Source: an uncultured Candidatus Saccharibacteria bacterium (GTDB lineage Bacteria; Patescibacteriota; WWE3; UBA101185; UBA10185). From it: a stretch of 51,671 nucleotides of DNA. The notes under the pieces were generated by a model, which was not told the origin of the DNA, did no database searches, and saw only the letters and a list, made by a program, of their open reading frames with translations. The stretch spans positions 1-51,671 of the forward strand of contig CAYLMU010000002.1 in the NCBI GenBank assembly GCA_964385105.1, in the 5' to 3' direction. Position 1 is the first letter of the stretch, and every line of letters begins with the position of its first letter. The translations under genes and the position numbers were made by a program. Shown in pieces: positions 12,724-39,623 of this stretch.

Positions 12724-13157
12724 TGCTCTGGTATTTTAGCATAGAATAATATACAATACATATATATACAAAGGCACTTGTGCCAGCAAGACGCCTCAAG
12801 GAGGGGGACGCTACATTGGTATGGGTAAGCTTTTATTGGTTTCGTTGGTGGTAGGCTCCTGGTTACGTTGCCTTGCCCATACCTTTGTTTTTTCGGAGAG
12901 AATTTGGACAGAGCGGAAGAGGCGTGGCATGCCGTGTTTATTCAGTGCTCATTGCAACACATCGCAGCTTGCAACGAGTTTCGACGAAAATAAGCACACA
13001 TTCATAATTTTTTTGGCATGCCACAAAAAATTGAGAATGGAAGGAATTTTTTACCTCCTGGCCCTCCATTCTTTGCATGAGCCGGTGACGACATTGCATT
13101 TTGACTAACATCGTCAAGCGCGTCACCGGCTATTTTTTACTTTGTTATAATATTCAC

Positions 13158-13772
13158 ATGAGATTAATAGGATTACTCTTTCAAGAACCTTTAGTTTTTT
13201 TATTTGTAGCGGTGGCTTTAATCCTTTCTCTTTCAATACATGAATTTGCCCATGCATATGTTGCTCAAAAATTAGGGGATGATACCGCATATTATTTAGG
13301 ACGTGTTACATTAAACCCGTTATCACACCTTGACCCCATTGGTACACTACTACTTTTGATTGCAGGATTCGGGTGGGGAAAGCCTGTTCCGTTTAACCCT
13401 TATAATTTAAAAAATCCAAAAAGAGATAGTGCAATAATTTCATTTGCCGGGCCTTTGTCAAATTTTTCTTTGGCACTTATTTTAACTGTTTTATACCATG
13501 TTTTGCCGTCTTCACCGCTACTAAACGGCTTTTTGTATACAACTATTTTATATAACATCGCACTTGGAGTGTTTAACTTAATACCGATTCACCCCTTAGA
13601 TGGATTTAAGGTTTTTAATGGCATATTACCCGATGAATTGTCTGAGCAGTGGATTCAAACTGCGCCTTATGGAATGTTTATTTTATTATTTTTGGTTTTT
13701 ACCGGTTTTGTGGGAAATATAATAGGTCCAGTAATTTACTTTGTATTAACTTTACTTGGCTTGCGAGTTTAA
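13158..13772 (+). CDS. Site-2 protease family (M50) membrane metalloprotease
   Basis: [44 protein letters not shown]; ATG at 13158 is 6 nt after TATAAT. Confidence 0.93.
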
Positions 13773-18995: not shown

Positions 18996-19755
18996 ATTCT
19001 TCGTAAGACTTTTCAAAAGCAAGCTTAAATATAGATTTTAGTGTAGTAGCTAAGTCTTTGTTTTCTATAAGTACGCCTACAAATTTACCTTTCTCAAAGC
19101 TCAACATAGCTATTTTATTATCATACACATCAATTTCCGCCGGCAGAGGATATTTCTCTTTGTTAAGCAGAACACTCTTTCGTAATGAGATTTCATCTTT
19201 CTTACTAACTTCACGTGCAGTAGGCGAGTCAGCAATGAAAGAATTTGCAAAAACTTTATTATTGATACGTAACGGAATAAGTTTCTTTTGTATATAGTCC
19301 GGAATGGCTTGATTGGCTTTCTCAAAGTCTACTGCACCATATACCACTTCATCTTTTGGGCTGTATATATCATCGAAAATTTTTTTTATACCTGTTAAAT
19401 CTTCAAAATACGTAATGCCGGGCTTTGTAGTTTGCAATAGATAGCTTGATTCAAGTTGAGGCATAATAGCTTCAAGTGATCGTTGTTGAGCAATAGTTTG
19501 ATTTAAGTCAGATTCAATTTGCTGTAAAAGTTTATTTGGATGTTCAGGTCTGAAGTGGGTCTTTTTATTTCTTTGAAACGTAGAAACTAGCCCTCTCTTT
19601 TTTAGATCATCAAGATATTTATAAATCATCCCTCTTTTATATGGAGCTTGTTTTGTAAGTGTGGCGGCAGAAATTTCACCATTTTGTAGCAAAATATCAT
19701 AAATTGTTGCTTCCCCCTCGCTTAAACCAGAATCAACTAAAAACTTTTTGTACAT
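18985..19755 (-). CDS. TrmB-family wHTH transcriptional regulator
   Basis: GLSEGEATIYDILLQNGEISAATLT..KRGMIYKYLDDLKKRGLV; C-terminal EIDVYDNKIAMLSF and LKSIFKLAFE. Confidence 0.88.
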   Translation of the reverse strand: MYKKFLVDSGLSEGEATIYDILLQNGEISAATLTKQAPYKRGMIYKYLDDLKKRGLVSTFQRNKKTHFRPEHPNKLLQQIESDLNQTIAQQRSLEAIMPQLESSYLLQTTKPGITYFEDLTGIKKIFDDIYSPKDEVVYGAVDFEKANQAIPDYIQKKLIPLRINNKVFANSFIADSPTAREVSKKDEISLRKSVLLNKEKYPLPAEIDVYDNKIAMLSFEKGKFVGVLIENKDLATTLKSIFKLAFEKSYEESSE

Positions 19756-19784
19756 GTAATTAGAGTATATAAGTTAGTGTCATG

Positions 19785-19913
19785 TGTCAATAAGATGTTG
19801 ACAAGTACTAGAACCCATAGTATAGTATATAACACTGATGTCACAGGAAGAATGTATATTACTCTGATGTTTGTCAACACATACTTGACAAGTATAAAAC
19901 TATAGGGTAAGAT
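19785..19913. promoter_or_regulatory. Twin TGTCAA-N7-TTGACA palindromes forming overlapping divergent sigma70 promoters
   Basis: Palindromes at 19785-19803 and 19872-19890, both followed by AGTA. + strand: TTGACA-17-TATAGT and TTGACA-17-TAAGAT. - strand: TTGACA-17-TACTCT, 6 nt before the TrmB ATG. Confidence 0.7.
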
Positions 19914-19919
19914 ATAAAC

Positions 19920-20900
19920 ACTTGAAAAATAAATAGCTAACAAAAAGCAGATCCTACCAGATCTTGATTCTACCTAAAAAGATTGCTGCTAAGCCAAAAA
20001 GGCCCTGTAAAGGCTTTACGGCGACACATTTAGAAAGCCAAGATTTGGTAAAGAAGTCTAAAAACCTTGATATAGCAACCTATACAAGGAATTGCATTTC
20101 TTTTCAGATCTTGGCTTTTTTCGTTTTTGCCTTAAATGTGCAATAAACATTGATATATTGCAAGCAAAAGCTTGTCTAGGAAACACGGGACACCTTTAAG
20201 AACCCAATTTGGAAGTTATCTAGAAACAAACTGTCCATAACCGGGAGAGAGACTTAAACGGACCTACCGACTTCTCGGACAAGCTTTTGCTTGAAATTCA
20301 AATACGAATTCAGGCAGCATTTGGCTTAAATACAAGCCAAACATTGAAATTAAAATAAAGCTGCTGTTTATACATTTGCCCCTACCGGCCAAACTTGGGT
20401 ATATCCCATGGTTTGATGTGTAGCAGAATAAAGCTTAAAACTTGCCAAATGCTTTAACAAAAGTAAGTGGCAACCGAGAATCTGTTCCATTGGCCGGCAA
20501 ATTTGCCTGCCTGAAAGGAAAGAGTGGCTCAAAACTGACAAAAGAGACAAACGATTGCTTAAAAACGTAATGAACATCAATTTGTTCTTACGAAAAGTAA
20601 AGTAGGTAATTGGCTAAATGGTCATTAGAAACACTTTAGCTATAGCCAAAAAAGCTTTACTTCCTACCTTTCGTGAATCCTGCCAAATAAATTCATGGAT
20701 ATTACGAAAAGGAGAGGATCAAAGTTATTGTTACTTAAGCAAATAGGCTTAGGTGCAGGCTTTGGTTTCCTGACTGCGCTTTTAGCGGTGGCGAAAATGT
20801 TGCCGGTGAAGGTGCAGATTAGGAAGGACTTCTTCCTAAACAGAAATCTCTCCGTAGGTATTAGCTTACGGATACAAATGCCGGCGCCTGAAACGCTGGA
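19920..20900 (+). ncRNA. Candidate large structured non-coding RNA or leader (about 1 kb)
   Basis: No credible ORF; nested inverted repeats, e.g. perfect 16 bp 20161-20176/20278-20293, TTCAGGCAG/CTGCCTGAA, CCGGCCAA/TTGGCCGG, AAAGCCAAGATTTG/CAGATCTTGGCTTT. Confidence 0.45.
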
Positions 20901-20911
20901 AGGAGATTAAA

Positions 20912-21241
20912 GTGAAGATTTATGAATTCACAACCAACTGGAATCAAACAGTTGGCGTCGACGGGGACTATCGGCATGTGATGCCGTTGGGCGACCTCCC
21001 CCATGTCTCAACGTACGAGGATGCATATGCATTCCTCGTTTACGACGGGGCGATAAAATGGGGAGAGGAAATTGTGGTGGTGTTTTCCCCAGGGGGGGAC
21101 ACCATGTCAATCTTTAACGAGGTCGAAATCGGCCTTGTTAAGCAGGTTGGGCCGTCAGAGCTGTCTTTTTTGGCTCTGAGCTGGTGGCTTGAAAATCAAG
21201 GGATGACCCCTGAGGACATGGAGGAATTTCTCAGAGGATAA
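20912..21241 (+). CDS. Hypothetical protein (109 aa)
   Basis: GGAG SD plus GTG start; protein-like composition. Confidence 0.7.
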   Translation: MKIYEFTTNWNQTVGVDGDYRHVMPLGDLPHVSTYEDAYAFLVYDGAIKWGEEIVVVFSPGGDTMSIFNEVEIGLVKQVGPSELSFLALSWWLENQGMTPEDMEEFLRG

Positions 21242-21784
21242 TCCCATTTTTCTACGACGCAAGCTAGTATTCTTTTTTTAGAGTATGACACTTGCGTCTC
21301 CACTTTAAACTTTAACTATAAATTGAAGTTTAAGCTGGAGAATAATAATTTAGTAGGATTAGGAAGAATTGAGGGACTACGCTAACCCTCAAAAAGCACT
21401 GTAATAGGGTAATTTAACCATTGCAGAATGCTTTTATCTCTTCCTACCAATTAAAAATACGTAGTTATCAAGTTGCTGTGTGTAGATGTTTGCAAAACGT
21501 GCGGGTTGTTAAACGTCTGCATCAGCTACCGGATAACTGAGGTAGTTTGGTTTGTTGTGTCTTTAATTAGGCAATGACAACTTAAATGATCTTGATTTAT
21601 CGGTAGCGGCTTGTTCTACCTGCCTATTTAATAGAACTGCCGACAAGTTCTTTGAAAACCGAATATCAAAGAATGTTAAATGATTGAGAAATTAGATTTT
21701 AGCAGTTAGGGAAGTGGATGGTGTTATAAAGCTTTTTATGGCTTATAGCATTGTACGCTTCCCGGGGCTGCATATCCTATAGAG

Positions 21785-21813
21785 TTGACATGGTGTAAGA
21801 CCTATAGTATAAT
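21785..21813 (+). promoter_or_regulatory. Consensus sigma70 promoter
   Basis: TTGACA-17 nt-TATAAT, exact consensus. Confidence 0.85.
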
Positions 21814-22098
21814 TGAGTCGTATTAAAGTGAGATAAGAAATTAGATCGCTTTGACAATATAAATATGTATCTTGCCCGATATAGCGACGTTTACCCAAAT
21901 TGTAAGTTAATAGACATTTTGAAGCTTTTGTAAGAAGGTAACAGATTAGTATTTGCAAGCAGTAAAGCTTTGTATATGCTTTTTTGATGCGTTCTTATAA
22001 AGAACCGGCCGAAAACACCTAGGTCGACAGCGAAACTGCGTGTGCAGTGGAGTAGGTGAAAACCCAAGATTTTCTATAGCCTAAAGGAGGCATAAGAA

Positions 22099-22797
22099 AT
22101 GAAAAACGTGAATCAGACGAGTGAAAGTGGAAAATACACGAAGTTGGTTTGGGCGATGAATGCTGCCGCCTTTGTCCCGGAAATCGTCTCCGAGAAGGTA
22201 ACATTTCCCCCCGTCATTCATGATGGGAATGGAAAAACGCACGTGTTGAAGGAACGAGAATTTTATTTTCTGGTTCCGGAAGCGTTGGACGGACGTTGGC
22301 GCAAGATCGCCCGCAAGCATGCGGACGCGCTCGCCCGGCCCGAATATGGCCCCCGCGGCCAGTTCGGGTTTTTGACGGTTTCGGCAGAAGCCGACCGTCA
22401 ATGGGAGTTATTCAAGGCCTTGTGCGCCAGTCAGGCGCGTGAGGCTGAGGAAATTCTCGTTGCGTTGAGCAACGAGGCTCTCATTGGAAAGGCGAAAATT
22501 GATTTCGAGAAAGCCCAGCGGCTTCTCAACTCGAAAAAAGCCTATCCCGCCCTTTGCGCTGCTCGCGCAGCTCAGAGGGAGTTTGAACGTCAACGCGACG
22601 AGCTGGTGGGGACCATAGGTTCCCAAACAGATTCGTTCGTTGGCGACCGCCGTTTTACACAAAAAGGTGGGGTTCGAGTTGAACTCCGTCAAAACGGGAA
22701 AAACGGCACTCGGAAAGGCGGTTGGGACAAAAAGCGCTCCAAGCGCTCCAGTCGCCAAAAAAACGAAAGTCATTTGGATCCGGCTAACTACCGGTAA
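22099..22797 (+). CDS. Hypothetical protein (232 aa) with Lys/Arg-rich C-terminal tail
   Basis: GGAGG SD; long ORF; tail GKNGTRKGGWDKKRSKRSSRQKNE. Confidence 0.8.
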   Translation: MKNVNQTSESGKYTKLVWAMNAAAFVPEIVSEKVTFPPVIHDGNGKTHVLKEREFYFLVPEALDGRWRKIARKHADALARPEYGPRGQFGFLTVSAEADRQWELFKALCASQAREAEEILVALSNEALIGKAKIDFEKAQRLLNSKKAYPALCAARAAQREFERQRDELVGTIGSQTDSFVGDRRFTQKGGVRVELRQNGKNGTRKGGWDKKRSKRSSRQKNESHLDPANYR

Positions 22798-22814
22798 AAT
22801 GGTTTTCGTTTGAA

Positions 22815-22957
22815 GGGGCCGACAGGCGTCGACTTCGCGGAAATAGTTTCGGTAGAGGGAAAATGCCCAAGCAAAAACCTCGAAAAAACTTGGTCAGCCT
22901 AAACCCTGACGACAAAAAAAGCCGTGAAGGACCTGGGTTCGATTCCCAGCGGCTCCA
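22815..22957 (+). ncRNA. Miniature tmRNA-like RNA: tRNA-like domain, helix 2a and pk1, no normal mRNA-like domain
   Basis: Acceptor stem GGGGCCG/CGGCTCC-A with G3:U wobble. ssrA-like 5' end GGGGCCGACAGGCGTCGAC. T-arm CTGGG-TTCGATT-CCCAG. CTTCGCGG/CCGTGAAG helix. Pseudoknot GAGG/CCTC plus CCAAG/CTTGG. Only 143 nt; CCA not encoded. Confidence 0.8.
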
Positions 22958-23015
22958 TTATGTAAGTGCTCGACCCGTAAGGGTAGAGCTATGGCCTTGT
23001 GCCAGGAGAAAAAAA

Positions 23016-23120
23016 ATGGAGATTATTATTTCCATTTTTCGTTCCCTAAAAGCCACTTGGCGCTGCATTTGCGGTACCGAAGTGGAAATGGGGAAATCCT
23101 GTTGGCGTTGCAACCAGTAG
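23016..23120 (+). CDS. 34-aa zinc-ribbon-like microprotein
   Basis: AGGAG SD; MEIIISIFRSLKATWRCICGTEVEMGKSCWRCNQ with CxC..CxxC. Confidence 0.55.
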   Translation: MEIIISIFRSLKATWRCICGTEVEMGKSCWRCNQ

Positions 23121-23627
23121 TTTAGGTTGCAAAAAAACGTCAACACCCACCAATGGGTTACAATGGCAGGTTTGATATTACCTGGGTGCTGGTTATCCAA
23201 AAGCACAAAAAATATAATGGTGACAGGGAACCTGGAAATAATTAACGGGTGAACTGTTGCGATAGTTTTTTTATAAAAACTACAAGGAGAAAAAATTAAT
23301 TCTGATGACATTCTGAATTAATTTCTCACTCCCTGCAGGGCTTAATACCTAAACAGCAAAAATGTTTTAGGTCGGGAGTAAACGTGTGAGGGATCACACC
23401 AAAAGTTAAGCCAAAGCAATCATTTGAGGGGACGTTTCGATTCGGAACTGCGTGAAATTGCAATTAAGCAAATTCATATCTGGTCGTTTCGTCCCTTTCT
23501 TCATTTATTAATTACAGAAATTAGCTTATATAAAAATGTGGGTTAGTTTCCTTACTTAATAAGTATGGCGGATTATGTACCTAGCCGTTAGTGCACGTGC
23601 ACACTGGTACAAAAGGAGAGAAAGATT

Positions 23628-23915
23628 TTGAATAGAAAATTTTTTGGAAGACAACAGAAGGGGTTGCGAAAAAACATGCGAACTCGCTCTGTTGTTAGAG
23701 CATGGAAGGCAGCAATTGCTGATGCTCGCGAAGATGTCCTCATTCCCCTGAATCGTACTCCTGAGAAGGATATTATTGAGGGTGAGTACATTGAGCGTCT
23801 TCGGAGTCATCCGCGCTATCCCAAATGCCAAAAGGAGCGGAAACTCCGTACCCGTCGTCGTGTCCGACGTTTTCGTTATTTTTACGAAGACATTCGGTAC
23901 GAATACTGGGCTTAA
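23628..23915 (+). CDS. Hypothetical Arg-rich protein (95 aa)
   Basis: AGGAG SD plus TTG start. Confidence 0.65.
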   Translation: MNRKFFGRQQKGLRKNMRTRSVVRAWKAAIADAREDVLIPLNRTPEKDIIEGEYIERLRSHPRYPKCQKERKLRTRRRVRRFRYFYEDIRYEYWA

Positions 23916-24138
23916 AATCTTAAAACTCTGAGGTACAAGGTTAGGCATTTTCATAAATTTATCATTTATGCCTAGCCTTGTACCATAACACTTTATTTTC
24001 TCAATCAAGTATTAATATTCTTTATTTGTAGCCAATTGTTTGGTGGTATTTGTTGTTTTTGTGGTAAAGACAGCAGGTATTACTAAGCAACTGTGCTTGG
24101 TAAGAAAAAATAGGACGAAAACCCAAGGAGAAAGGGAA

Positions 24139-24495
24139 ATGGATGAAGAGCAGTTGGAACAATTAAAAAAGCAGATCTTGAAAAAGTTTCATGATCAGTA
24201 TGAATATGAGAGAAAAAATTTGATGGCAAGATTTCTTGCCGTCCACAGTGTGGGCGGGAATACAATTGAGCCATTTTATCGCGCCGAAGAACGCACGGTA
24301 AAGCTTTTTGTTGAAGTTTTCGGAGAGAATTCTCCTGCGTACTATGTGCGCGGTGAAGATCTTTGCCCGGATTGGCGTGGTTCCTTTGAAGAAGGGAAGA
24401 CTTACGCTGAATGTTGGCGTGATGGCTCTTTGAAGGTTGTCGATGACTCTGAGGGTCAAACTTTTGGAATGCGGGGGCACTTGTATTATGAGTAA
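24139..24495 (+). CDS. Hypothetical protein
   Basis: AAGGAG upstream of ATG 24139 (MDEEQLEQLK); overlaps next start. Confidence 0.72.
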   Translation: MDEEQLEQLKKQILKKFHDQYEYERKNLMARFLAVHSVGGNTIEPFYRAEERTVKLFVEVFGENSPAYYVRGEDLCPDWRGSFEEGKTYAECWRDGSLKVVDDSEGQTFGMRGHLYYE

Positions 24496-24793
24496 TACAA
24501 AGGTCTCCGAAATGAGAGAAGGCGAAAAGGGTTACGTGGTGCCCTGGGCTTTTTCTCGTTTAAGGTTTGGGATTAGTGTAAATAAAAATTACACTGTAAG
24601 TCCCAAATTTGGTGGAACTGCAACCGTCGAAGTTGCAAAGATTCAAGGAGAACTTAGAGTTCTCAGTGGATTAAAACTTGACAGAGTAAGCAACTGGAGG
24701 AAGGAGTTTCTGCTTCCGGTTAAGCTTACCTGGTATGATCGTGTTAGGTTTCTGATTTTTTGCATGTTGCAAAAAATACAAAAAAAACGTTAA
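24488..24793 (+). CDS. Hypothetical protein
   Basis: MSNTKVSEMREGEKGYVVPWAF; start overlaps upstream stop. Confidence 0.68.
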   Translation: MSNTKVSEMREGEKGYVVPWAFSRLRFGISVNKNYTVSPKFGGTATVEVAKIQGELRVLSGLKLDRVSNWRKEFLLPVKLTWYDRVRFLIFCMLQKIQKKR

Positions 24794-25110
24794 GTTTAAA
24801 CAAAGGAGATACCACTAGCTCTCAGCTAGAACACTCCTTGACCTCGCCCAAATGGGTTGTAAGGTCTAAAGAATGAAACTCAACTTGGTATCAGATTCCG
24901 TTCGGGACGGATCTGTAGAGTTTCCGCAAGCCTCTTGTTTCCTGGGTTAAAGGACAGGTGAAGAGAGGATGAGAGCACAAGCGAACAACGACTGAACAAT
25001 TTTAGTTCAGGATCGGTTCCCGTCCACATAGTGTGGATTCCGTGCCAACTCTTGGCGCAGGTGAGGCTTTCCGGTAATGCCGACACCAAAATAAAAGAGT
25101 TACTAAGCAG

Positions 25111-25190
25111 TTTGTCTTACGCGCTCCAGCTATAACCAGTAAAAAATTAATTAAAACTTAAACTGTTATGGCTGGGGGTTTGCACTTAAA
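25111..25190. repeat. About 80-nt dispersed hairpin repeat, copy 1
   Basis: Near-identical to 27858-27935 (4 substitutions, 2 single-base indels); 16-bp stem CTCCAGCTATAA(C)CAGT/ACTGTTATGGCTGGGG. Confidence 0.9.
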
Positions 25191-25262
25191 TTTGGAACTT
25201 TGTTTATAAATTTTTGTAAACAGAATTCCTTTTTTAAGGATAGAGTGATCAACTCGAAAAAT

Positions 25263-25448
25263 ATGAAGCTTGTTATTGAAGTGCCTGGCGAAAAGCATAA
25301 GGGCAAAATAACTAGGGTAAAAGACTTACTGAAATGTCTTTCGGGCCTTTGGCAAACCTCACCGCAAGGGAGGCGACTGAGAAGGTTCGGCCGGTACGCC
25401 GTGTTAGTTGCGTATAAAGGGAAAAAAGAGAATGAGTACGTTGTATGA
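25263..25448 (+). CDS. Hypothetical small basic protein
   Basis: MKLVIEVPGEKHKGK; overlaps next gene. Confidence 0.5.
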   Translation: MKLVIEVPGEKHKGKITRVKDLLKCLSGLWQTSPQGRRLRRFGRYAVLVAYKGKKENEYVV

Positions 25449-26409
25449 TTTGAGTTCTGTATTAGCAAATCCTGATGATGTTGAGGATTTGCAATTTCAA
25501 CTCAATAGAGAGTTGGAGTATGTGATACTCGCAGTGCAAGCACTGCGGTATGAATACTCCGAAGCCGATCTTGGCTATGGAAAGCAGGGAAACCTGTCTT
25601 TCAAAGGTCGTGCTCCCGAGTTGAAGACAAAGGCAGCCAGAGTGGCAGACTGGCTGATTTGGCTTCGGGATGGAACTCCTGAAGAGGCAATGATGGGAAT
25701 TGCTGAGAGTATTTCTCAGCTAATTCGTGAACTCGACTACACTTTGTCGTATGACAAAGACAGTAGAGAGTTTTTCCGGATTCTCGGGGAACTGGAATAC
25801 AAAGGTCGCTACGCGGCCTTTTATCCTGACACTCGGGAGGTGCTCGTGGAGTTTGACACGCTTGAAGAAGGATTGGAGTTTGCAAAACAAGCTCCTATTT
25901 TTCTTACAAGTGTTGTCGAAGCTTTCCGTGCGCAGCGGGAAAACAACATGATTCGTTGGTATTTCGATGCTGACGGGTCGATGGTAGATGGTGGAAAGAT
26001 TTTTACCACCCAATACCAAAATTGGAAGACCGTTACGCTTTTGAAGGGTTTAGGGTTTGAAGTCGACCGTGAGAGGGTCGGGGACAATTTGGTCACGAAA
26101 AGTGGACCGGTTGTTCACATCTTTCACGGTTGGGAACCATCGAAAGATGGTTCACGTCTCACAAGCGGGGACGATCTATCTAACCCCGATTCCCCGCACT
26201 ATGGCCGCCGGTACCTTGATGCGTTTCTTTTTTGGACGCCCGAAGGTTACGCCGACGTTGTAGTGTGGAATTCCAGTCCCCATGGGGACGACCAACTGTA
26301 CGAAGTTGTTGGTCTGTCCTCTTACGAGGATTGGAAGGTGTTTGTGGAAGAGCGCCCAGAGGAATTTGGTTTGAGCCACTGGCTCGAATTCAATTCCATC
26401 TCGCTCTGA
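25432..26409 (+). CDS. Hypothetical protein (about 325 aa)
   Basis: Long ORF with purine-rich RBS before ATG 25432. Confidence 0.8.
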   Translation: MSTLYDLSSVLANPDDVEDLQFQLNRELEYVILAVQALRYEYSEADLGYGKQGNLSFKGRAPELKTKAARVADWLIWLRDGTPEEAMMGIAESISQLIRELDYTLSYDKDSREFFRILGELEYKGRYAAFYPDTREVLVEFDTLEEGLEFAKQAPIFLTSVVEAFRAQRENNMIRWYFDADGSMVDGGKIFTTQYQNWKTVTLLKGLGFEVDRERVGDNLVTKSGPVVHIFHGWEPSKDGSRLTSGDDLSNPDSPHYGRRYLDAFLFWTPEGYADVVVWNSSPHGDDQLYEVVGLSSYEDWKVFVEERPEEFGLSHWLEFNSISL

Positions 26410-26718
26410 AATTTTTTGAAGGCTACTGTAAAGTTATTTGGCAAATTAGCTAAATAACGGTAGCGTTGTGTTACCACAAAACAACTAAAACTTATGTGGA
26501 AAAGCAATTAAGTCTTAAATGGGAGATAGGGTTTGTTAATCTAACTGTAGAAATACTTTTAGCACGCAACCCTGTCTCCCAATCTCAAAATTTAGTTTAA
26601 TAGTCGTTCTCGTTTTGGCTTGCAATTTTACAGGCTAGTATGAGCATGATTATTGTAGTTAACCAATAAACTCTAGCTTCGGAGTGGTTAACGTTTGGTC
26701 ACCTTTAAAGGAGGAATA

Positions 26719-26964
26719 ATGACCAAAAATCCCTTATACACCCATGATTGCACCGAGTGTACATATCTTGGTGCATTTGAGGGTATCGACCTTTATCTCC
26801 ACAATGTTGGAGATGAAGAATCTTGGGAAATGGTTTGTCGCAGTAGCGACGAACCTGAAGATTATTATTGTCTTCCTTGGTTTGCTGATTTGGGTGAGGA
26901 ATCCAATTTCGACAAATATAGGGAGATTAAGAAAAGGGCTTTAGCCCAAATGGTCAAAACTTAA
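26719..26964 (+). CDS. Hypothetical protein with HDCxxC motif
   Basis: AGGAGG SD; MTKNPLYTHDCTECTYLG. Confidence 0.75.
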   Translation: MTKNPLYTHDCTECTYLGAFEGIDLYLHNVGDEESWEMVCRSSDEPEDYYCLPWFADLGEESNFDKYREIKKRALAQMVKT

Positions 26965-26974
26965 AGGAGGAAGA

Positions 26975-27469
26975 ATGACCAAATTAAAAAGAGTGTGGTT
27001 TTTAAGGAACCACACGAAAGTCCAATACACCGGCCTGGTAGCCGGAGTTAGGGACGGAAAGTTGTTGGTGAGGTACGCAAGACCTCTCAATACTTTTCAT
27101 GCTCCAAGCTTCATGGGGGAAGAAATTCGATTCCCTCAAACGGTTCTAGTAAGTAGGGAAGATATCTTGCCTTCAGGCAAGTTACGATTTCCTGAAAGCT
27201 GGGACCAAGATAGCGCATATGCGCTGAAACATGTTCCCTTCAAAAGTACCTTTGATGGTACTTTGTTTATCTATCATTATGTTGATGATAGTAGAGAAGG
27301 GATGGTTTATTTCTCTCTTCCGGTGGAAGAAGCTCAACTTATATTTGAGGGCTTTCCTCCACTGGAGAATTTTTTGTACCACAGCACAGTTACCGGAACG
27401 GTAACTGGTGAAATCGCATTTTACATCCTACGGGATGGTGTGCGGTTTAATGTGGTATATAAGGAATAA
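26975..27469 (+). CDS. Hypothetical protein (164 aa)
   Basis: AGGAGG SD; tandem with the previous gene. Confidence 0.78.
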   Translation: MTKLKRVWFLRNHTKVQYTGLVAGVRDGKLLVRYARPLNTFHAPSFMGEEIRFPQTVLVSREDILPSGKLRFPESWDQDSAYALKHVPFKSTFDGTLFIYHYVDDSREGMVYFSLPVEEAQLIFEGFPPLENFLYHSTVTGTVTGEIAFYILRDGVRFNVVYKE

Positions 27470-27473
27470 GTAA

Positions 27474-27805
27474 TTTGCGAAGCTCAGACAGAAGCTCCCT
27501 AGAATCGCCTTAAAAAGCGATACGTTGAAACGTCGAACAAAGCTCCAATCAGACACCCAGCCATGTAAAAAATGGCTTGATCTGATAAGGCTCAGCACCT
27601 AAACCAGGGTGTAAGGTTGAGCACGAGGAGAAAAGGCGTTTTCGCATGATGTTAAGGATGGTTTTCCGATGCATGCGTAAAAAAGCGTGTACCATTTGTT
27701 TTGGTACGAATAGGTGTCCGAAAGTTTAATATTTCGGAGCTCGGCCGGGGTCTTGGGTAAGATAGCCGGATGAGTAGAGAAATCTCTGCACGAGCGATTC
27801 GCAAA
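27474..27805 (+). ncRNA. Candidate multi-helix ncRNA (about 330 nt)
   Basis: Closing helix TTTGCGAA-GCTC/GAGC-(GA)-TTCGCAAA enclosing at least 8 hairpins; no ORF. Confidence 0.5.
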
Positions 27806-27857
27806 AAAAGCTGGGAATTTAACAAAGGTGGTTAAATTCCATAGTTGCAGTTAGTTG

Positions 27858-27935
27858 TTTGTCTCACGCGCTCCAGCTATAACCGGTAAAAATTAATTAA
27901 AATTTAAACTGTTATGGCTGGGGGTTGCATTTAAA
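27858..27935. repeat. About 80-nt dispersed hairpin repeat, copy 2
   Basis: Near-identical to 25111-25190. Confidence 0.9.
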
Positions 27936-28197
27936 AGAGGAATTTTGAGTACAAGATTTACGCTACTACTTGTAACCAAAATTTCTCTTTCAAATTACAT
28001 TTTGAATCGGATTAACATCCGGCCAATTCCTAGGTTTGCATATAGCTGCTTCCCGGTGCTTGATAAGTGCCGAATAAGGTTGAGCATATGGTTGTATGCA
28101 AAGTTGGATAGATGTTTTTGACTGAGGACGTGTTACCGCACGTAAAAAGGGTAAAAAGCGAAAAAAAAACAAAAGAAAACAAAAAGGGAAAAAAGAA

Positions 28198-29100
28198 ATG
28201 AATAAAGTACAGATGGACCGTCTGCAGGGGATTTTGATGTCGTTAGCAGACAGCACGGATTTGAACGTGCATCACAATGGTGTGGTTGCACGGATTTGGG
28301 GACGTCAGTCTCCTTACGTGTCTCATCAGGGGATTGATTTTGAGGTGGATGTTTATCACCCCGTGGGACATGATGTGGTTGCCTTTGATGGCAATTACAA
28401 GATGGTTGTTTCTGTTTGGGGGGACGCCAAGTGGCCCTTTGGGGATAAGCTCGATACCCCGAAGGACACATTTGAGGCTGAACTCGTTTCAGCCCAAATT
28501 CCTTTTCAACTCATCGAGTCGTTGCTCGATGACGTTGTGAATCGGGGAGCCCTTCCCTGGAGCATTGTTGCACAGCTGCGTGAACGTAAGCTTGTGTATG
28601 TGACGTTCCAGATTAAAAAGGTTGTTGGATGGACGTTTGACGGACGTCCGATTTTCAACAGCCTTGTAATCCGTTCTCAAAGAGAGCGGATTGTTAAGAG
28701 AATGAGGGAAACGCCAGATGTTATGGCGTACCCCGGTGATTTCGACGAGGCATTTGATGTCTCGGATAATGAACACCGGTGGATGAGTCCAAATTTCCCG
28801 CTTGACGTGTCGTTTGACGATACTGATGAGCAGGGAAGTTATGGCATGAGTTTCTCGAGTATCCTCGAAGCACGAGGATTCGAAGAGATACTCAAGGATG
28901 CCCGATTTGTCGAAATGATTCAGAAAATCCCTTACTTCGGTTGGGGAAGGGATTATTCTGAAATTGATGAAGATGAGGAGGAGTTTCAGTTCACAGAGGA
29001 GGATTATGAAACCTTGCTGGGCGGCGACACGCTTCGTAAAATTTACGAAGCCGACAAAGCCTGGAAGGTAAAATCCTCGTCCATTGAAGAAGAAGAGTAA
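28198..29100 (+). CDS. Hypothetical protein (300 aa) with acidic C-terminus
   Basis: Long ORF with purine-rich RBS. Confidence 0.8.
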   Translation: MNKVQMDRLQGILMSLADSTDLNVHHNGVVARIWGRQSPYVSHQGIDFEVDVYHPVGHDVVAFDGNYKMVVSVWGDAKWPFGDKLDTPKDTFEAELVSAQIPFQLIESLLDDVVNRGALPWSIVAQLRERKLVYVTFQIKKVVGWTFDGRPIFNSLVIRSQRERIVKRMRETPDVMAYPGDFDEAFDVSDNEHRWMSPNFPLDVSFDDTDEQGSYGMSFSSILEARGFEEILKDARFVEMIQKIPYFGWGRDYSEIDEDEEEFQFTEEDYETLLGGDTLRKIYEADKAWKVKSSSIEEEE

Positions 29101-29407
29101 ATTTGTTTAGCGGGATAGACCAGACTATTCCTTAGAAAGTAGCTAATTAAAGCGAAATCAGTTATCTGGTAATTTGTCTCGGAGCCCAAGTTAGTATTCT
29201 GATGTATAGAATGTGAAACTTGGGCCTCCTTTCAAGACTTTTAGAGTTTCTAAAGGTTTTGGACCGGAGGTAAATAGTATCGCTCGTTTTGCAACTTACA
29301 TAGTAAGTAATATAGTAAGTAATAGAGTGAGCGATATTATTAATAAACTGATCGATGAAGTCCAGCTTCGGAGGGAGATCGGTTTAACTTTCCTAGGAGG
29401 AAAGATC

Positions 29408-29767
29408 ATGAAAAACTTTCATGTTGCTCTGATTGATATTAATTCCCCGGAAGTGGGGGAGCAGTTTGGCGTCAGTGGCTGTTTGTCAGTAAACAAAGTT
29501 GGCACTGAAGTTTGGTGCTATCTGAGTGAAGTATTTTTGCCTGGAGACAACACTGATTTTACAGAGGGAAATGTGATTTTGGCGATTGGCGCCAAGGTGC
29601 CTGAATATATGCTTGAAGCGATTCGCTTTGAGCTCGAAAACGAGCACACCGGGTACCTTACGCCAGTACTCGATGTTTTTTTGGAAAAGCTGGTGTCTTT
29701 GCAGGCGCATCACGAATTCCAGCCTCCTGCAGAAGGAAGAGCGCTAGGGAAGCGTTTGTACTTCTAG
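29408..29767 (+). CDS. Hypothetical protein
   Basis: AGGAGG SD before ATG 29408; the upstream in-frame extension overlaps hairpins and is probably non-coding. Confidence 0.72.
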   Translation: MKNFHVALIDINSPEVGEQFGVSGCLSVNKVGTEVWCYLSEVFLPGDNTDFTEGNVILAIGAKVPEYMLEAIRFELENEHTGYLTPVLDVFLEKLVSLQAHHEFQPPAEGRALGKRLYF

Positions 29768-29919
29768 CGCAAAAAACAAAATTCCTTGATGGTAATGGAT
29801 ATGCCTAAAAACATAAAAAACCATCAAAAAAATTAGCAATTTCTCTTTGGACCGGGATAGAGAGAAAATCGAAAACATAAGAAAAGGTGATTATATGAGT
29901 GAAAAAAGTGTTGAAATAG

Positions 29920-30546
29920 TTGGCCGTGTTTGATGGGGAAACCATCTACATGGTTGATGAGCCGCGTGAGGCAGAAATTGCCGAGCTGGGTTATGTGGAT
30001 CGCGAACTAGTGGTACGCGACCACACGCGTCGGCAAGTGACGTTCGAAGTGGCCCCCGACCACCTGCTGAAGCAGGTTGAAAAGGAGCTACTTCAGGTCC
30101 GTCGGTGGCAAACTTTTGGTGAATGGCCGCAGAGCCATTCACTCCGGATGGATGACAAGACCGCTCGGGTCTATGTTGTCTATTCCGGTGGAGAGACCTC
30201 GTTCTCTCCCGAAGGTTACCACCGAGCGGGTTCTAGAGCGTACGAGGAAGCAAAATACTTCCTCCGGCAGGTTGTGAGAGGTGAAATTGAACCTGCTGTG
30301 TTGCTCCCCCAAGGCATATTGAGGAAGGTGGAACTTCCGCCCGTTCCTCAAAAGTGGGGGGAGCAGTACGCATATGTCAAGGCGTTACGCTTCTTGGGTC
30401 GAAAGACTCCTAAAGTGCAACGCCATGACGACCCCAACGCCAGGCTGTCCTGGACAGCCGTCCATTGGCTGGGGATTAGATTGGCTCTTGCCCTTGGTTG
30501 GGTTCCAAACCCGCCAAAAAGTGAAAACCACTTTTGGGCAGAGTGA
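29920..30546 (+). CDS. Hypothetical protein; true start possibly ATG 29895 with a frameshift near 29920
   Basis: 208-aa ORF; no SD at TTG 29920, but an SD-preceded ATG at 29895 is out of frame by one base. Confidence 0.65.
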   Translation: MAVFDGETIYMVDEPREAEIAELGYVDRELVVRDHTRRQVTFEVAPDHLLKQVEKELLQVRRWQTFGEWPQSHSLRMDDKTARVYVVYSGGETSFSPEGYHRAGSRAYEEAKYFLRQVVRGEIEPAVLLPQGILRKVELPPVPQKWGEQYAYVKALRFLGRKTPKVQRHDDPNARLSWTAVHWLGIRLALALGWVPNPPKSENHFWAE

Positions 30547-30791
30547 ATCAGTGCAGTCACAGCTGCAAAATAAACCTTCATGCACATCATGTAGGTAACT
30601 CAAATGAGTAGTTCTGTGAAAAACTCATAAGCAATTTGTTTTGTCGTGGCCAAAGTACAGTTACCTTAACCGGGATCTTGTGCTTTGGCCGCTCTTTAAA
30701 ATATTTCAGTGATAGTAATTTGCCGGTAACTAGTTATGGGTAAATTACTCTCATTGAATTGGAGAGTAAAAAATATAAAAGGAGAAAAAAA

Positions 30792-31100
30792 ATGAACGGC
30801 AACGGCAGGTATAATTTCGTCTGCATGGACTGCGGATATTTGGCAAAGCGACATAGTGGGGGTATTTGTCCACATTGTCGCATTCAGCTTACTAAAATAA
30901 CCCAAGAAGAAGCAAGATTTCTTGGTGACAAAAAAGTGAGAAGTGACAGACTGAGCGTTCTGAAGTGGATTCGTAGTAGATATTCCAAAGAAGTACTAGA
31001 ATCCACAGACAACTGGGGAAGGCCTTTTGTCCCATTATTATGGAGGCCTCGCAAGAGACGAAATTTAAGAGTTTTAATGGGTTGTGTAAAAAGATCTTAA
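30792..31100 (+). CDS. Zinc-ribbon-containing small basic protein
   Basis: AGGAG SD; CMDC..CPHC. Confidence 0.72.
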   Translation: MNGNGRYNFVCMDCGYLAKRHSGGICPHCRIQLTKITQEEARFLGDKKVRSDRLSVLKWIRSRYSKEVLESTDNWGRPFVPLLWRPRKRRNLRVLMGCVKRS

Positions 31101-31450
31101 AAACAGTACTCAATGTGAGTTATATAGTAATCGCACAAACATTGAGTTCAAAAAAGCGCTTTTGTGTTTTAACAGTGGGTAGGACTGTTAGTAACAAAAC
31201 ACGAGAGCGCTTTTTTGCATTATCCTATAAAATAATAATGGACATGCATTGTTCAAAATCACCTGATTCCAAACAAGTACATGTCCTAAAGTTCTAAACC
31301 TCAAATTCTAAAAAAGGGTGCTTATGTTATTTGCGAGACAAAATATTCTGCAACACAACAAGTGCCGATTTTCTCAAAGCAGCGCTAAGCCTACGTGCAT
31401 TATCGTCACTAATCTTGATTCCATTACCAAATATATTCTTCATTACTTTC

Positions 31451-32599
31451 TCACTTTAACTGATTAGCTGTTGTTACAATTAAATTCGATATTTCCTCCC
31501 AATCTGGTCTGGCGTCTACCCTAATACAAACAGCAGGCACTCCTGTTGATTTAACATATTTTACTAAATTTGGAGAAATTTCACAACTTTCAATAGTAGC
31601 GTTGGCATCGTTTGTCATAAATCCGTTTCTATAAACCTGGATACTAACGCTAGCATCCGTGTCCCCATTGAATTCCGAGCTAATTCCCACAACCGTATTA
31701 TAATTACTCGACTTAATATCTACAGCAAATTCCAGCCCACTACCTAAAATTCTAACTCTACCATCAATCCCATTATAAACATCGTCATGTACTTCAGTTT
31801 CGTTGTTACCCGTAATTATTTCAAAATCTGGTGATGCATCAAAAAATCTTAATACTTGAAATTCTGCAAAAGCTCCACTACGTAATTTTCTAAAATTACT
31901 TTCATAATCTGGTGTTTTAGGAACTAAAGTTTTTAAATTATCCCAAAGTTCCTTGAACTCTATTTTGTAGTCTTGGCCATCGTCTGTTTTTTCAAGCATA
32001 ATGTCAGAAATATTTCTTAAAAATCTCGACATATGAGTTGGATAACCAGTCATATTATGCTGATAGGGATTTTTGTCATTTTTAATATTACTTTCAATTA
32101 CCCAAAGCATATTAGAAACAAGTAGTATTTGAGCGCCTGCCTGATAATACTCGTCTTCACTTGCTGTTTCGCGCAATCTGTCTAGAACCATAGTTGTTGC
32201 AACAGCTCTTCGTGCACTGTATTGGGCTATATTGGCATTTGAACCGGATCGCTCAATTTTTATATTTTCTTGTAATAGCCAGTTTGTATAAAGAGCAACT
32301 GCTTCTTCAGCAGTTCGTATTTCTTGTCGTTCTAGTTTTGGAATAAAATAAGTAACTTCATATCTATTTTCATCAAGTAGTTTTTCTAAATAGTCATAAG
32401 TTAGTGGAGTACCTAGTTCATCTATCGCTTTTACTATTCCTTGTTCAATATCTTCTAACGCTTGCTCAAATGTGACAGTATTTTGCTCAATTGTGTATCT
32501 ATCATTTAGAGGGTTTCTAATTTCAACATTAGCAGCCATTTCCGCTTCATTACGTACTCTCTCATGTTCATTTTCAAAAGTTATAGCAGGTGAAGTCAT
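31451..32599 (-). CDS. Hypothetical protein with possible C-terminal PD-(D/E)XK nuclease-like motif
   Basis: FAEFQV..HDDVYNGID..FAVDIKSS; ATG 32599 is 7 nt after TATAAT. Confidence 0.7.
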   Translation of the reverse strand: MTSPAITFENEHERVRNEAEMAANVEIRNPLNDRYTIEQNTVTFEQALEDIEQGIVKAIDELGTPLTYDYLEKLLDENRYEVTYFIPKLERQEIRTAEEAVALYTNWLLQENIKIERSGSNANIAQYSARRAVATTMVLDRLRETASEDEYYQAGAQILLVSNMLWVIESNIKNDKNPYQHNMTGYPTHMSRFLRNISDIMLEKTDDGQDYKIEFKELWDNLKTLVPKTPDYESNFRKLRSGAFAEFQVLRFFDASPDFEIITGNNETEVHDDVYNGIDGRVRILGSGLEFAVDIKSSNYNTVVGISSEFNGDTDASVSIQVYRNGFMTNDANATIESCEISPNLVKYVKSTGVPAVCIRVDARPDWEEISNLIVTTANQLK

Positions 32600-32728
32600 T
32601 AACTTAATTATAGCCCAAACAAATAATCTTCCAACCAATCTTACTTCATACATTTATATTTTTAAAATATACTTAATAAGTTGAAATTTTTTTGACTATA
32701 GCTAAGAAGTGTAAAAGGAGAGTAAATC

Positions 32729-39279: not shown

Positions 39280-39462
39280 ATGTGCCATGAGGAGGATATG
39301 ATGAGCAGAGACTTTACTTATGTCGCCATTGCGCTTTTTGCTTTGGCGATTTTGATTATTGCCATCGTGTTTTTGCCGGAAGCGGCAATGTCAGATGGCA
39401 TTGGAAAGCAGTTGTTCGTAAGGGTGATCGAATGTTGGCTTAATACGCCAACATGCTCATAA
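39280..39462 (+). CDS. Small hypothetical membrane protein
   Basis: GAGGAGG SD before an internal ATG (about 39298-39301); one TM segment. Confidence 0.5.
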   Translation: MCHEEDMMSRDFTYVAIALFALAILIIAIVFLPEAAMSDGIGKQLFVRVIECWLNTPTCS

Positions 39463-39623
39463 AGGCGCCAGGCGGAAAGTTAAACGAGATTACATAAAAA
39501 TCTCCGGAGACTTTCACCTGACGCCTTTTTTAAAATTTCACTAGTATTAAAAATAAATACAAATTCTACAAAAAATTACCGCCTCGTTTGCAAAAATAGA
39601 TTCATATTGTATTCTTCTAGAGT

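Follow-up and report, generated by a model that had tools for sequence, protein, structure and literature searches.

The polycistronic mRNA of the early region of phage T7 is cut and stabilised at inter-cistronic RNase III hairpins. [quoted passage not shown] Across 4969 natural phage genomes, most of which consist of double-stranded DNA, the reported medians are about -0.3 for z in 120-nt windows and 3% for the minimum folding energy difference (MFED) (PMC11409064). No report was found in the literature of RNA-phage-like fold tightness, inside and between genes, for DNA-encoded bacterial genes. Here we describe an island of orphan genes located at positions 19756-31450 of the window, which is the whole analysed stretch of 51,671 nt from contig CAYLMU010000002.1 of an uncultured member of the Patescibacteria (candidate phyla radiation, CPR). 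The hallmark signature of RNA phages was found here in CPR chromosomal DNA, as a unit reaching from promoters to a terminator-like hairpin, and it recurs in related metagenomic elements. With a probability of roughly one half, we suggest that the locus is a regulator-controlled, phage-related accessory element, the long + strand transcript of which is selected throughout for stable structure and carries a few specific cis-acting RNA domains in its leaders.

Folding was calculated for 120-nt windows (step 60) on both strands of the whole 51.7-kb window, using 30 dinucleotide-preserving shuffles per window. On the + strand, mean z was -2.94 for the open reading frames (ORFs) and -2.44 for the spacers of the island compared to -0.12 outside (n = 663; Mann-Whitney p 1e-23 to 1e-36); the - strand outside the island gave a mean of -0.10 (663 windows). 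In 1-kb bins the signal is a step function, with values of about 0 up to position 20000, between -1.8 and -3.8 in each bin from 20001 to 31000, and about 0 thereafter. The first-pass annotation, made from the sequence alone, had described an RNA-rich module with G-U-containing helices in almost every spacer and had set folding against dinucleotide shuffles as the check. Folding was clearly far better than that of the controls: half of the spacer windows showed z < -2, ten of the twelve spacers taken as a whole reached z -3.0 to -12.5, and G-U pairs accounted for about 15% of the predicted + strand pairs. Together with covariation in at least one spacer domain (see below), this bears out the RNA-rich module; the dense pairing, however, is not a property of the spacers alone, as the ORFs turned out to be at least as structured.

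Permuting synonymous codons within each gene, which preserves both the protein and the codon usage, removed much of this stability. For 12 island genes the native sequence scored z -1.5 to -11.1 (mean -5.9) relative to its permutations, compared to a mean of -0.03 for 17 host genes, and the mean 120-nt minimum free energy (MFE) of the island genes was about -40 kcal/mol in the native and about -30 kcal/mol in the permuted form. It is therefore the arrangement of synonymous sites that builds the structure. The strongest value was obtained for an ORF of 300 aa with an acidic C-terminus (28198-29100, + strand; z -11.1), for which an independent tool yielded an RNA fold z of -9.0; a host gene of comparable length scored 0.04. 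Relative to mononucleotide shuffles, 1.5-kb pieces showed z -9.6 to -25 and an MFED of 29-41%, with host pieces at z -1.5 to +2.4; these values are rough, as 15 shuffles were used for each piece. The stability of the island (z -10 to -25 per 1.5 kb) thus stands beside the -19 of the 3.6-kb MS2 genome and is extreme when compared to the median z of about -0.3 of DNA phages (PMC11409064). As in ssRNA phage genomes, the pairing is mostly local and pervades coding and non-coding sequence. Provided that the island is transcribed and folds as predicted, a DNA-borne bacterial element could match RNA viruses in the strength of selection for RNA structure at synonymous sites.

The structured zone coincides with a predicted transcription unit. 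It starts just after two promoters, P1 (19798-19826, + strand, 11 of 12 consensus positions) and P2 (19885-19913, + strand, 10 of 12), dips at an internal promoter P3 matching the consensus at 12 of 12 positions (21785-21813, + strand), and stops at a terminator-like hairpin, AAAAAAGCGC...GCGCTTTTTT (31150-31216, + strand), which closes the zone. P3 lies inside an 857-nt structured spacer (21242-22098, + strand; z -8.8), and in its surroundings (21721-21960) z rises locally to between -1.6 and +0.7; at the other end, the window 31141-31260 still shows z -7.3, and from 31261 onward z is about 0. Neither the promoter region nor the adjoining gene on its upstream side is structured. This control region (19785-19913, + strand; z about 0) holds two TGTCAA-N7-TTGACA palindromes (repeat family D11), the right arms of which are the -35 boxes of P1 and P2, respectively. 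Divergent from the island, a - strand gene (18985-19755) encodes a TrmB-family winged-helix regulator of 256 aa (Pfam PF01978, E 2e-10). In both G+C content and fold z this gene is host-like, and its membership of the element was deduced from synteny with a related metagenomic contig (L016). There, the order is a - strand TrmB-family gene, a palindrome/promoter, a leader of about 830 nt and a gene encoding a homologue of the 232-aa protein of the island. The L016 TrmB protein is 25% identical over its full length (E 1e-27) and occupies the same divergent position, and at the corresponding place a TGTCA-N7-TGACA palindrome overlaps a perfect TTGACA-17-TATAAT promoter; the upstream gene is a different one. 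Since regulator, operator, promoter and leader travel together in both loci, the TrmB gene was counted in the element, of which it probably is the own regulator.

Further observations concern the strand. The + strand of the island is more structured than the - strand (mean z -2.72 vs -2.00, 188 windows, paired Wilcoxon p 2e-7) and, relative to shuffles, retains its G-U pairs, which are depleted on the - strand. The 22 nt around each start codon show less pairing than the gene bodies (unpaired with a mean probability of 0.57 vs 0.38, p 0.006), an accessibility of start sites also seen in ssRNA phages; open start sites matter only for an mRNA and argue that the ORFs are real. The limits of the zone, the strand asymmetry, the retention of G-U pairs and the open ribosome-binding sites (RBSs) point to the + strand RNA as the level at which folding takes effect.

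Alternatively, the structure might have been selected or generated in single-stranded DNA (ssDNA) during rolling-circle replication, filamentous-phage-like packaging or conjugative transfer, where leading-region hairpins act as ssDNA promoters; hairpins would then serve replication, packaging or early expression, or result from template-switch mutation. Some inoviruses and plasmid leading regions are small, have their genes on one strand and lack an integrase, as does the island. Inoviruses have been reported in CPR (PMC6813254). Both strands of the island fold beyond chance, with a mean z of -2.0 on the - strand and z -7.1 for the - strand of one gene folded as ssDNA, and the excess pairs are Watson-Crick on both strands, so that a cause at the DNA level keeps some weight. 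We nevertheless consider it unlikely, because the structured zone equals the transcription unit and leaves out the promoter region and the TrmB gene, because structure is significantly stronger on the + strand, where G-U pairs are retained, and because the RBSs are selectively open, which is relevant only to RNA. Moreover, no replication initiator or rolling-circle Rep, Zot/pI-type ATPase, relaxase or coat gene was detected in any library searched, read depth equals that of the chromosomal flanks, and no circular junction was seen. An inovirus in particular was set aside for lack of its marker genes, the MoxR-type AAA ATPase encoded in the related contig L002 (see below) belonging to a different family.

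Within the folded unit, a few pieces are conserved between loci. The 992-nt leader (19920-20911, + strand), with an MFE of -321 compared to -231 kcal/mol for shuffles (z -13.9 and -12.5 in two computations), has three sub-domains. The first (about 20034-20130, + strand) is a long hairpin followed by a U-tract and has a counterpart in L016; situated about 130-200 nt downstream of the promoter in both loci, it is a candidate attenuator or terminator. Both loci also have the 5' box CUACCAGAUCUUGA in common. The second, of about 130 nt (20163-20296, + strand), has a closing helix of 17 bp around three inner helices, the loops being conserved in sequence. Identity to L016 2975-3105 (2987-3079 in a narrower delimitation) is 78%, although it is only 25% between the TrmB proteins. 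Each of the 34 pairs is formed in both loci, nine of them with compensatory double changes, whereas slid controls gave 0-1 and the observed value was reached by 1 of 500 shuffles. The covariation among homologues which the first-pass annotation had asked for was thus detected, in a domain that has no match in Rfam. The third sub-domain (20470-20725, + strand) is conserved in positions 75-300 of L005, a contig of a Joint Genome Institute (JGI) metagenome, as judged by blastn and alignment. The two loci share the blocks GAGAATCTGTTC, GAAAGAGTGGCTCAAA, GAACATCAATTTGTT, TGGCTAAA, CTACCTTTCGT and CCAAATA, and a long-range helix, GAAAG.GUGG/CUACCUUUC, is invariant in both and hence shows no covariation.

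A further leader of about 170 nt (25260-25431, + strand) precedes the gene of a 325-aa protein. It aligns with L002 1846-2009 and L005 900-1070 and ends in a hairpin just before the Shine-Dalgarno (SD) site; in the window, L002 and L005 alike, a leader of this type stands before the first gene of the operon. The pairing of the terminal hairpin survives two double changes, and compensatory changes are seen in 7 of 31 pairs. As each of these conserved motifs is represented by two or three sequences, the comparisons are suggestive and do not define a family. In addition, a hairpin element of about 80 nt is present in two copies (25110-25190 and 27857-27935, + strand; repeat families D1 and D3, 87-97% identity), each about 250-320 nt upstream of a large ORF and the second within a structured spacer of 728 nt (27470-28197, + strand; z -6.7). 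It may act in processing or as a stabiliser. Searches with patterns of the conserved leader blocks and the operon-leader hairpin yielded nothing in viral contigs, and a first pattern scan of metagenome contigs gave no match. Matches to the operon-leader hairpin pattern in metagenome and genome contigs were dismissed as chance, those in L010 to L013 lying inside unrelated sequence, as was a match in the viral contig L017, which falls within a phage structural gene of opposite orientation. As candidates for new cis-regulatory RNA motifs, the locus offers the covarying leader domain of 130 nt and the hairpin of the operon leader, in addition to an unusually small tmRNA-like gene.

The first-pass annotation had raised the possibility of a cluster of new non-coding RNAs (ncRNAs), in which the spacers would be independent functional genes of one or several new families set among unrelated small genes. 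The strong folding of 10 of the 12 spacers (z -3 to -12.5), the 130-nt domain covarying with L016, the segment conserved in L005, the 80-nt hairpin present twice and the missing coding signal in the spacers would all be in line with this idea. The island also resembles GOLLD, ROOL, HEARO and OLE RNAs in that a foreign element carries multi-domain structure extending over hundreds of nucleotides, with one covarying domain. However, the fold excess is equal or stronger in the ORFs and hence is no marker of ncRNA genes, for most spacers no homologue was detected in L002, L005 or L016, and three promoters and few terminators face twelve spacers. In contrast to those RNAs, the structure is not restricted to a discrete RNA gene, and at E <= 1 Rfam reported only a tmRNA, apart from chance-level matches to snoRNAs and miRNAs; GOLLD, ROOL, OLE, HEARO and ribozymes, most of which had been proposed as search targets, were absent. 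What stands of the proposal are two leader domains and one gene leader that are conserved; as an account of the whole island it is improbable. The signal is uniform over genes and spacers and the coding folds are not conserved, and we therefore regard most of the island as structure for its own sake rather than as discrete ncRNA genes.

The latter point was obtained from the one coding region with homologues. The C-terminal approximately 140 aa of the 325-aa protein (25432-26409, + strand; the largest ORF of the island, synonymous-permutation z -9.1) form a conserved domain shared with the proteins P0002, P0003 and P0004. P0002 is encoded in L002-L004, Logan assemblies from three other runs, P0003 in L005, and P0004 is a stand-alone gene product of 138 aa in the phage-like contig L006, where it lies among many small same-strand ORFs. 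In the four loci the 414-nt coding sequence of the domain has 50-59% nucleotide identity. Although every one of these sequences folds stably, no more than 0-10 of the roughly 140 pairs predicted occupy common alignment columns, the number for the window and L002 being 6-10. Stability, and not a particular fold, is kept here, a pattern known as GORS (genome-scale ordered RNA structure) and again reminiscent of ssRNA phages, in which the fold is likewise unconserved between relatives. Because the fold is not conserved between homologues, we conclude that structure as such is selected.

The related loci differ in how far they show the trait. In L002, a + strand operon comprising a MoxR-type AAA ATPase gene followed by genes for proteins of 283, 312 and 170 aa is as hyper-structured as the island, with z mostly between -2 and -8, and the oppositely oriented neighbour gene is at about 0. 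L005 and L016 are intermediate (about -1.1 to -1.6), and the phage contig L006 is nearly ordinary (z -0.84). The evidence is that hyper-structure is a family trait, the degree of which varies among relatives.

Such variation might also be expected if the structure were a by-product without function, i.e., a compositional or mutational peculiarity of a donor lineage (for example quasi-palindrome correction or an unusual codon-context bias) that was transferred and has not yet been erased. The unconserved fold, the differing degree among relatives (z about -1.1 to -2.9) and the lack of any gene with an assigned function fit this explanation. We regard it as quite unlikely, since controls for dinucleotides and synonymous codons do not reproduce the stability (z -5.9 per gene, MFED about 30-40%), the phage contig with the shared domain is nearly normal, and strand asymmetry and open RBSs point to selection on RNA. 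In addition, the window and L002 are both highly stable at about 58% nucleotide identity, which implies maintenance.

Gene content agreed with the first-pass annotation, which had counted about 14 small + strand genes covering about 53% of the region. Between the TrmB gene and a - strand gene for a 400-aa protein (31451-32653), 13 + strand ORFs were called, each with an SD site and a start codon, giving a coding share of 51.3% for 19756-31450 (52.5% when the tmRNA-like gene is counted). G+C content is 40-52% at 20-31 kb, where the GC skew is positive, compared to about 30-37% in the flanks. None of the 13 ORFs matched Pfam, PHROG, NCBIfam or PADLOC at E <= 0.01, a 102-aa ORF showing only a sub-cut-off match to PF18073, and among the island proteins other than that of the 34-codon ORF, only two, those of 325 and 232 aa, were found to have relatives.

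Low coding density would also be seen if the long spacers were decayed genes of a dying prophage, as the wrecks of hyper-structured genes would still fold. The absence of detectable mobility genes, the different modules of the window and L016, and an open stretch at the 95th percentile of shuffles in spacer 24794-25431 are compatible with decay. In eight of the nine spacers tested, however, open stretches and stop counts were at chance level, without any coding signal, and recently decayed genes were mostly rejected by this test. Spacer G+C is 0.30-0.43, with the exception of the 218-nt tmRNA spacer (0.50), compared to 0.44-0.52 for gene-rich kilobases. Furthermore, two leader segments are conserved as nucleotide sequence, one with compensatory pairs, and tblastn and tblastx of the island proteins and DNA against the related loci detected nothing in the spacers. 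Decay is thus a very unlikely origin of the spacers.

Returning to the accessory element which we favour, its DNA is clearly part of the chromosome. Independent Logan contigs from 4 activated-sludge metagenome runs cross the island borders with zero differences and at the depth of the flanks, which shows the island to be genuine chromosomal DNA in single copy and no assembly chimera. We propose that the element consists of the - strand TrmB-family regulator gene and a divergent + strand transcription unit of about 11.3 kb, and that it is an integrated, foreign and probably phage-related element reaching from about 18985 to 31220 in the Patescibacteria chromosome. It resembles temperate-phage and satellite islands in its foreign G+C, in the divergent helix-turn-helix regulator with palindromes over the -35 boxes of strong promoters, in the long one-strand operon of small orphan genes and in a domain shared with a phage contig. 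Foreign composition goes together with patchy presence, related modules being found beside TrmB in a divergent genome with another upstream neighbour. In contrast to such islands, no integrase, attachment (att) site, replication, packaging or virion gene was found and only about 51% of the sequence is coding. The resemblance to a phage-early host-takeover region, which the first-pass annotation had offered as a second interpretation, gained indirect support from the domain in the phage contig and from the divergent repressor-like gene, the operator and promoter of which resemble a phage switch. Same-strand early-type genes are parted by long hairpins as in T7, with the 80-nt hairpin standing before two genes; in T7, however, structure is confined to short inter-genic sites, whereas here spacers of 150-1000 nt and the ORFs are folded and cleavage is only predicted.

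Several points weigh against this view, in addition to the Watson-Crick excess on both strands and the stable - strand ssDNA discussed above. Integration is indicated by composition and patchy synteny: no variant without the island (empty site) was seen among the Logan contigs spanning the borders, the longest repeat common to both borders is 10-11 nt and thus at chance level, and no mobility gene was found in Pfam, PHROGs, NCBIfam or PADLOC. The tmRNA-like gene lies inside the island and not at a border, so that insertion at the end of a tRNA or tmRNA gene is not indicated either. The link to phages consists of one shared domain. The related metagenomic loci number four, and in two of these the structure is only moderate. 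The structures were all predicted from thermodynamics, no RNA sequencing run holding the locus was found, and transcription, its extent and its processing are deduced from the DNA. The adaptive reason put forward below, evasion of RNases or of defence, is speculation by analogy.

A possible course of events is as follows. The regulator would bind the palindromes overlapping the -35 boxes of P1 and P2 and keep the unit off. Upon its release, transcription would proceed through the leader of about 1 kb with its candidate attenuator and the covarying RNA domain, to which a regulatory function may be ascribed, would be reinforced by the consensus promoter P3, and would pass 13 protein genes and the mini-tmRNA to the terminator-like hairpin at about 31216. 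Selection would act on the whole predicted transcript, i.e., on leaders, spacers and synonymous sites, for very stable and mostly local structure, with the RBSs kept open. Long inter-ORF hairpins may serve as stabilisers or as processing sites for a double-strand-specific RNase. The presumed benefit would be protection of the element's RNA in a hostile cell, which would withstand single-strand-specific RNases as well as RNA-guided or RNA-sensing surveillance and have a longer life; we favour such protection by analogy with the pressures discussed for ssRNA phages (PMC13082091). Provided that transcription and folding are as predicted, the island would be a natural system for studying what structure buys, be it resistance to RNases, escape from RNA-sensing defence or packaging. 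Screens that detect RNA phages by structure would then need a caveat, as there would be a DNA-encoded source of ultrastable RNAs.

It is highly unlikely, but would be of consequence, that the island is a DNA "launch pad" of an RNA agent, with the ultrastable transcript of about 11 kb (or about 9 kb when initiated at P3) as its functional, transmissible or packaged form, which may be, for example, a satellite-like RNA or an RNA packaged by vesicles or by the capsid of a helper phage. The folding would in that case help to compact and package the RNA and let it survive outside the cell, and such DNA-encoded transcripts would explain part of the "unclassified ultrastable contigs", which make up more than half of the contigs with z <= -15 in metatranscriptomes (PMC13082091). 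An ssRNA phage or a DNA copy of one was rejected: the fold agrees, but the island belongs to the chromosomal DNA, where it adjoins host genes and has their read depth, with sigma-70-type promoters and 13 ORFs, where an ssRNA phage has no DNA stage, and no ORF matched an RNA-dependent RNA polymerase, coat or maturation protein of ssRNA phages (Leviviricetes) in Pfam or PHROG. An integron cassette array (a cluster of attC sites lacking integron-integrases, CALIN) was set aside, as such an array would have an attC-type imperfect palindrome behind each cassette and an intI gene close by, whereas there is one hairpin repeat in two copies, its arms deviate by eye from the R''/R' consensus, and no integrase was found.

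The only recognisable ncRNA gene is the one named by the first-pass annotation, a tmRNA (transfer-messenger RNA) of reduced size, and its identification held. The gene of 143 nt (22815-22957, + strand) scored 60 bits with Rfam RF00023 (gathering score 47, E 5e-21), in agreement with ARAGORN, and spans model positions 1-374, of which 249 have given way to 37 nt. Its acceptor stem of 7 bp carries the G3:U pair (GGGGCCG pairs with CGGCUCC), the T-arm is CUGGGUUCGAUUCCCAG with the GGUUCGAUUCC loop as in tRNA-Ala, and helix 2 is present. With this tRNA-like domain and a short putative frame ending in a stop it is like other tmRNAs of the family, including phage-borne and reduced forms. It differs from them in having 143 instead of about 350 nt, no room for pseudoknots 2-4 (PK2-PK4) and no encoded CCA. 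A tmRNA tag usually ends in a proteolysis degron, ...LAA. The tag predicted by ARAGORN, AQAKTSKKLGQPKP*, is a 14-codon frame ending in QPKP, which is not a hydrophobic degron and could be fortuitous. Because L016 has no tmRNA-like gene, the mini-tmRNA is cargo of this copy and not a part of the element's core. The gene starts 17 nt downstream of the ORF of the 232-aa protein, which has a basic C-terminal tail (22099-22797, + strand). Its interpretation as an SmpB analogue was not supported, with no Pfam family, SmpB included, matching at E <= 0.1; its AlphaFold2 (AF2) model is of low confidence and largely helical, being confident only for a helical hairpin (residues 95-178). A single relative was found among 1.84 billion representatives, P0007 of L016 (37% identity, E 1e-15).

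For the 325-aa protein, the AF2 model reached a predicted local distance difference test (pLDDT) score of 70-90 in the C-terminal domain, but no fold match at E <= 0.001 was obtained in the PDB or BFVD, and a profile search against PDB sequences gave nothing meaningful. No relative was found in genome contigs, and tblastn against 50,697 phage records gave no match. Besides P0004, the phage-like contig L006 carries genes for a PDDEXK nuclease, DnaJ, a primase-helicase, T5orf172, a sigma factor and a DNA methylase. In the island, integrases, recombinases, transposases, virion and other phage hallmark genes were not detectable in Pfam, PHROGs, NCBIfam or PADLOC; that integrase, transposase and virion genes are not seen had been noted from the sequence. 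The 300-aa protein is a strict orphan, with only itself found among 5.8 billion clusters; the RBS of its gene is 97% unpaired.

The remaining ORFs, all on the + strand, are small. The first encodes 109 aa (20912-21241; SD site and GTG start, permutation z -6.4) and has neither a family match nor relatives. A Cys-rich ORF of 34 codons (CxC...CxxC; 23016-23120) has the SD site AGGAG and an ATG start. It is followed by ORFs of 95 aa (23628-23915; z -1.9), 118 aa (24139-24495; z -3.6) and 101 aa (24488-24793; z -5.1), all three with an SD site and a start codon and without a family match; the start of the third overlaps the stop of the second. The ORFs of 81 aa (26719-26964; z -4.3) and 164 aa (26975-27469; z -6.6) have near-identical SD/start regions (repeat family D2). 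Downstream of the 300-aa gene are ORFs of 119 aa (29408-29767; z -2.6), 208 aa (29920-30546; z -9.3) and 102 aa (30792-31100; z -1.5), the last with a CxxC...CxxC pattern and a weak zinc-ribbon match (PF18073, E 0.004) below the cut-off.

At the end of the leader, the segment 20701-20880 shows the strongest folding of all 120-nt windows in the island (z -10.9, with an MFE of -51 kcal/mol). The segment overlaps a possible hydrophobic ORF of 60-71 codons (20695/20728-20910) abutting the 109-aa gene and may represent an RNA element, a small membrane peptide gene or both.

Three segments of the related contigs also deserve mention. In L002, the strongly structured + strand of positions 1-1020 (z -2 to -7.6), on which no gene was called, holds a perfect GC-rich hairpin, AGCCCCGGAAAAACCGGGGCU, and has no similarity to the spacers of the window. 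Further downstream (2010-3804), the MoxR-type AAA ATPase and the 283-aa protein, which has no Pfam match, precede the conserved domain protein, in a layout that resembles pairs of MoxR and a VWA partner. At the end of L016 (5450-5626), the start of an ORF with the P-loop GETGSGKST looks like a DEAH/HrpA-type helicase or another NTPase; a possible RNA helicase beside a highly folded transcript is of interest.

Immediately left of the TrmB gene, a host gene (16368-18995) encodes a protein of 875 aa with a weak class-I methyltransferase domain at residues 689-783, outside of which no Pfam match was obtained; the gene at the matching position in L016 is unrelated to it. Elsewhere in the window, isolated strong folding was observed on both strands at 13021-13200 (z -4.7 and -5.8), at the junction of the + strand ORFs 12821-13108 and 13101-13772. 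The strongest folding outside the island occurs at 39301-39540 (z -6.7 and -6.4 on the two strands), in the gap upstream of a 719-aa ORF at 39624, and could represent a terminator, a palindrome or a leader element.

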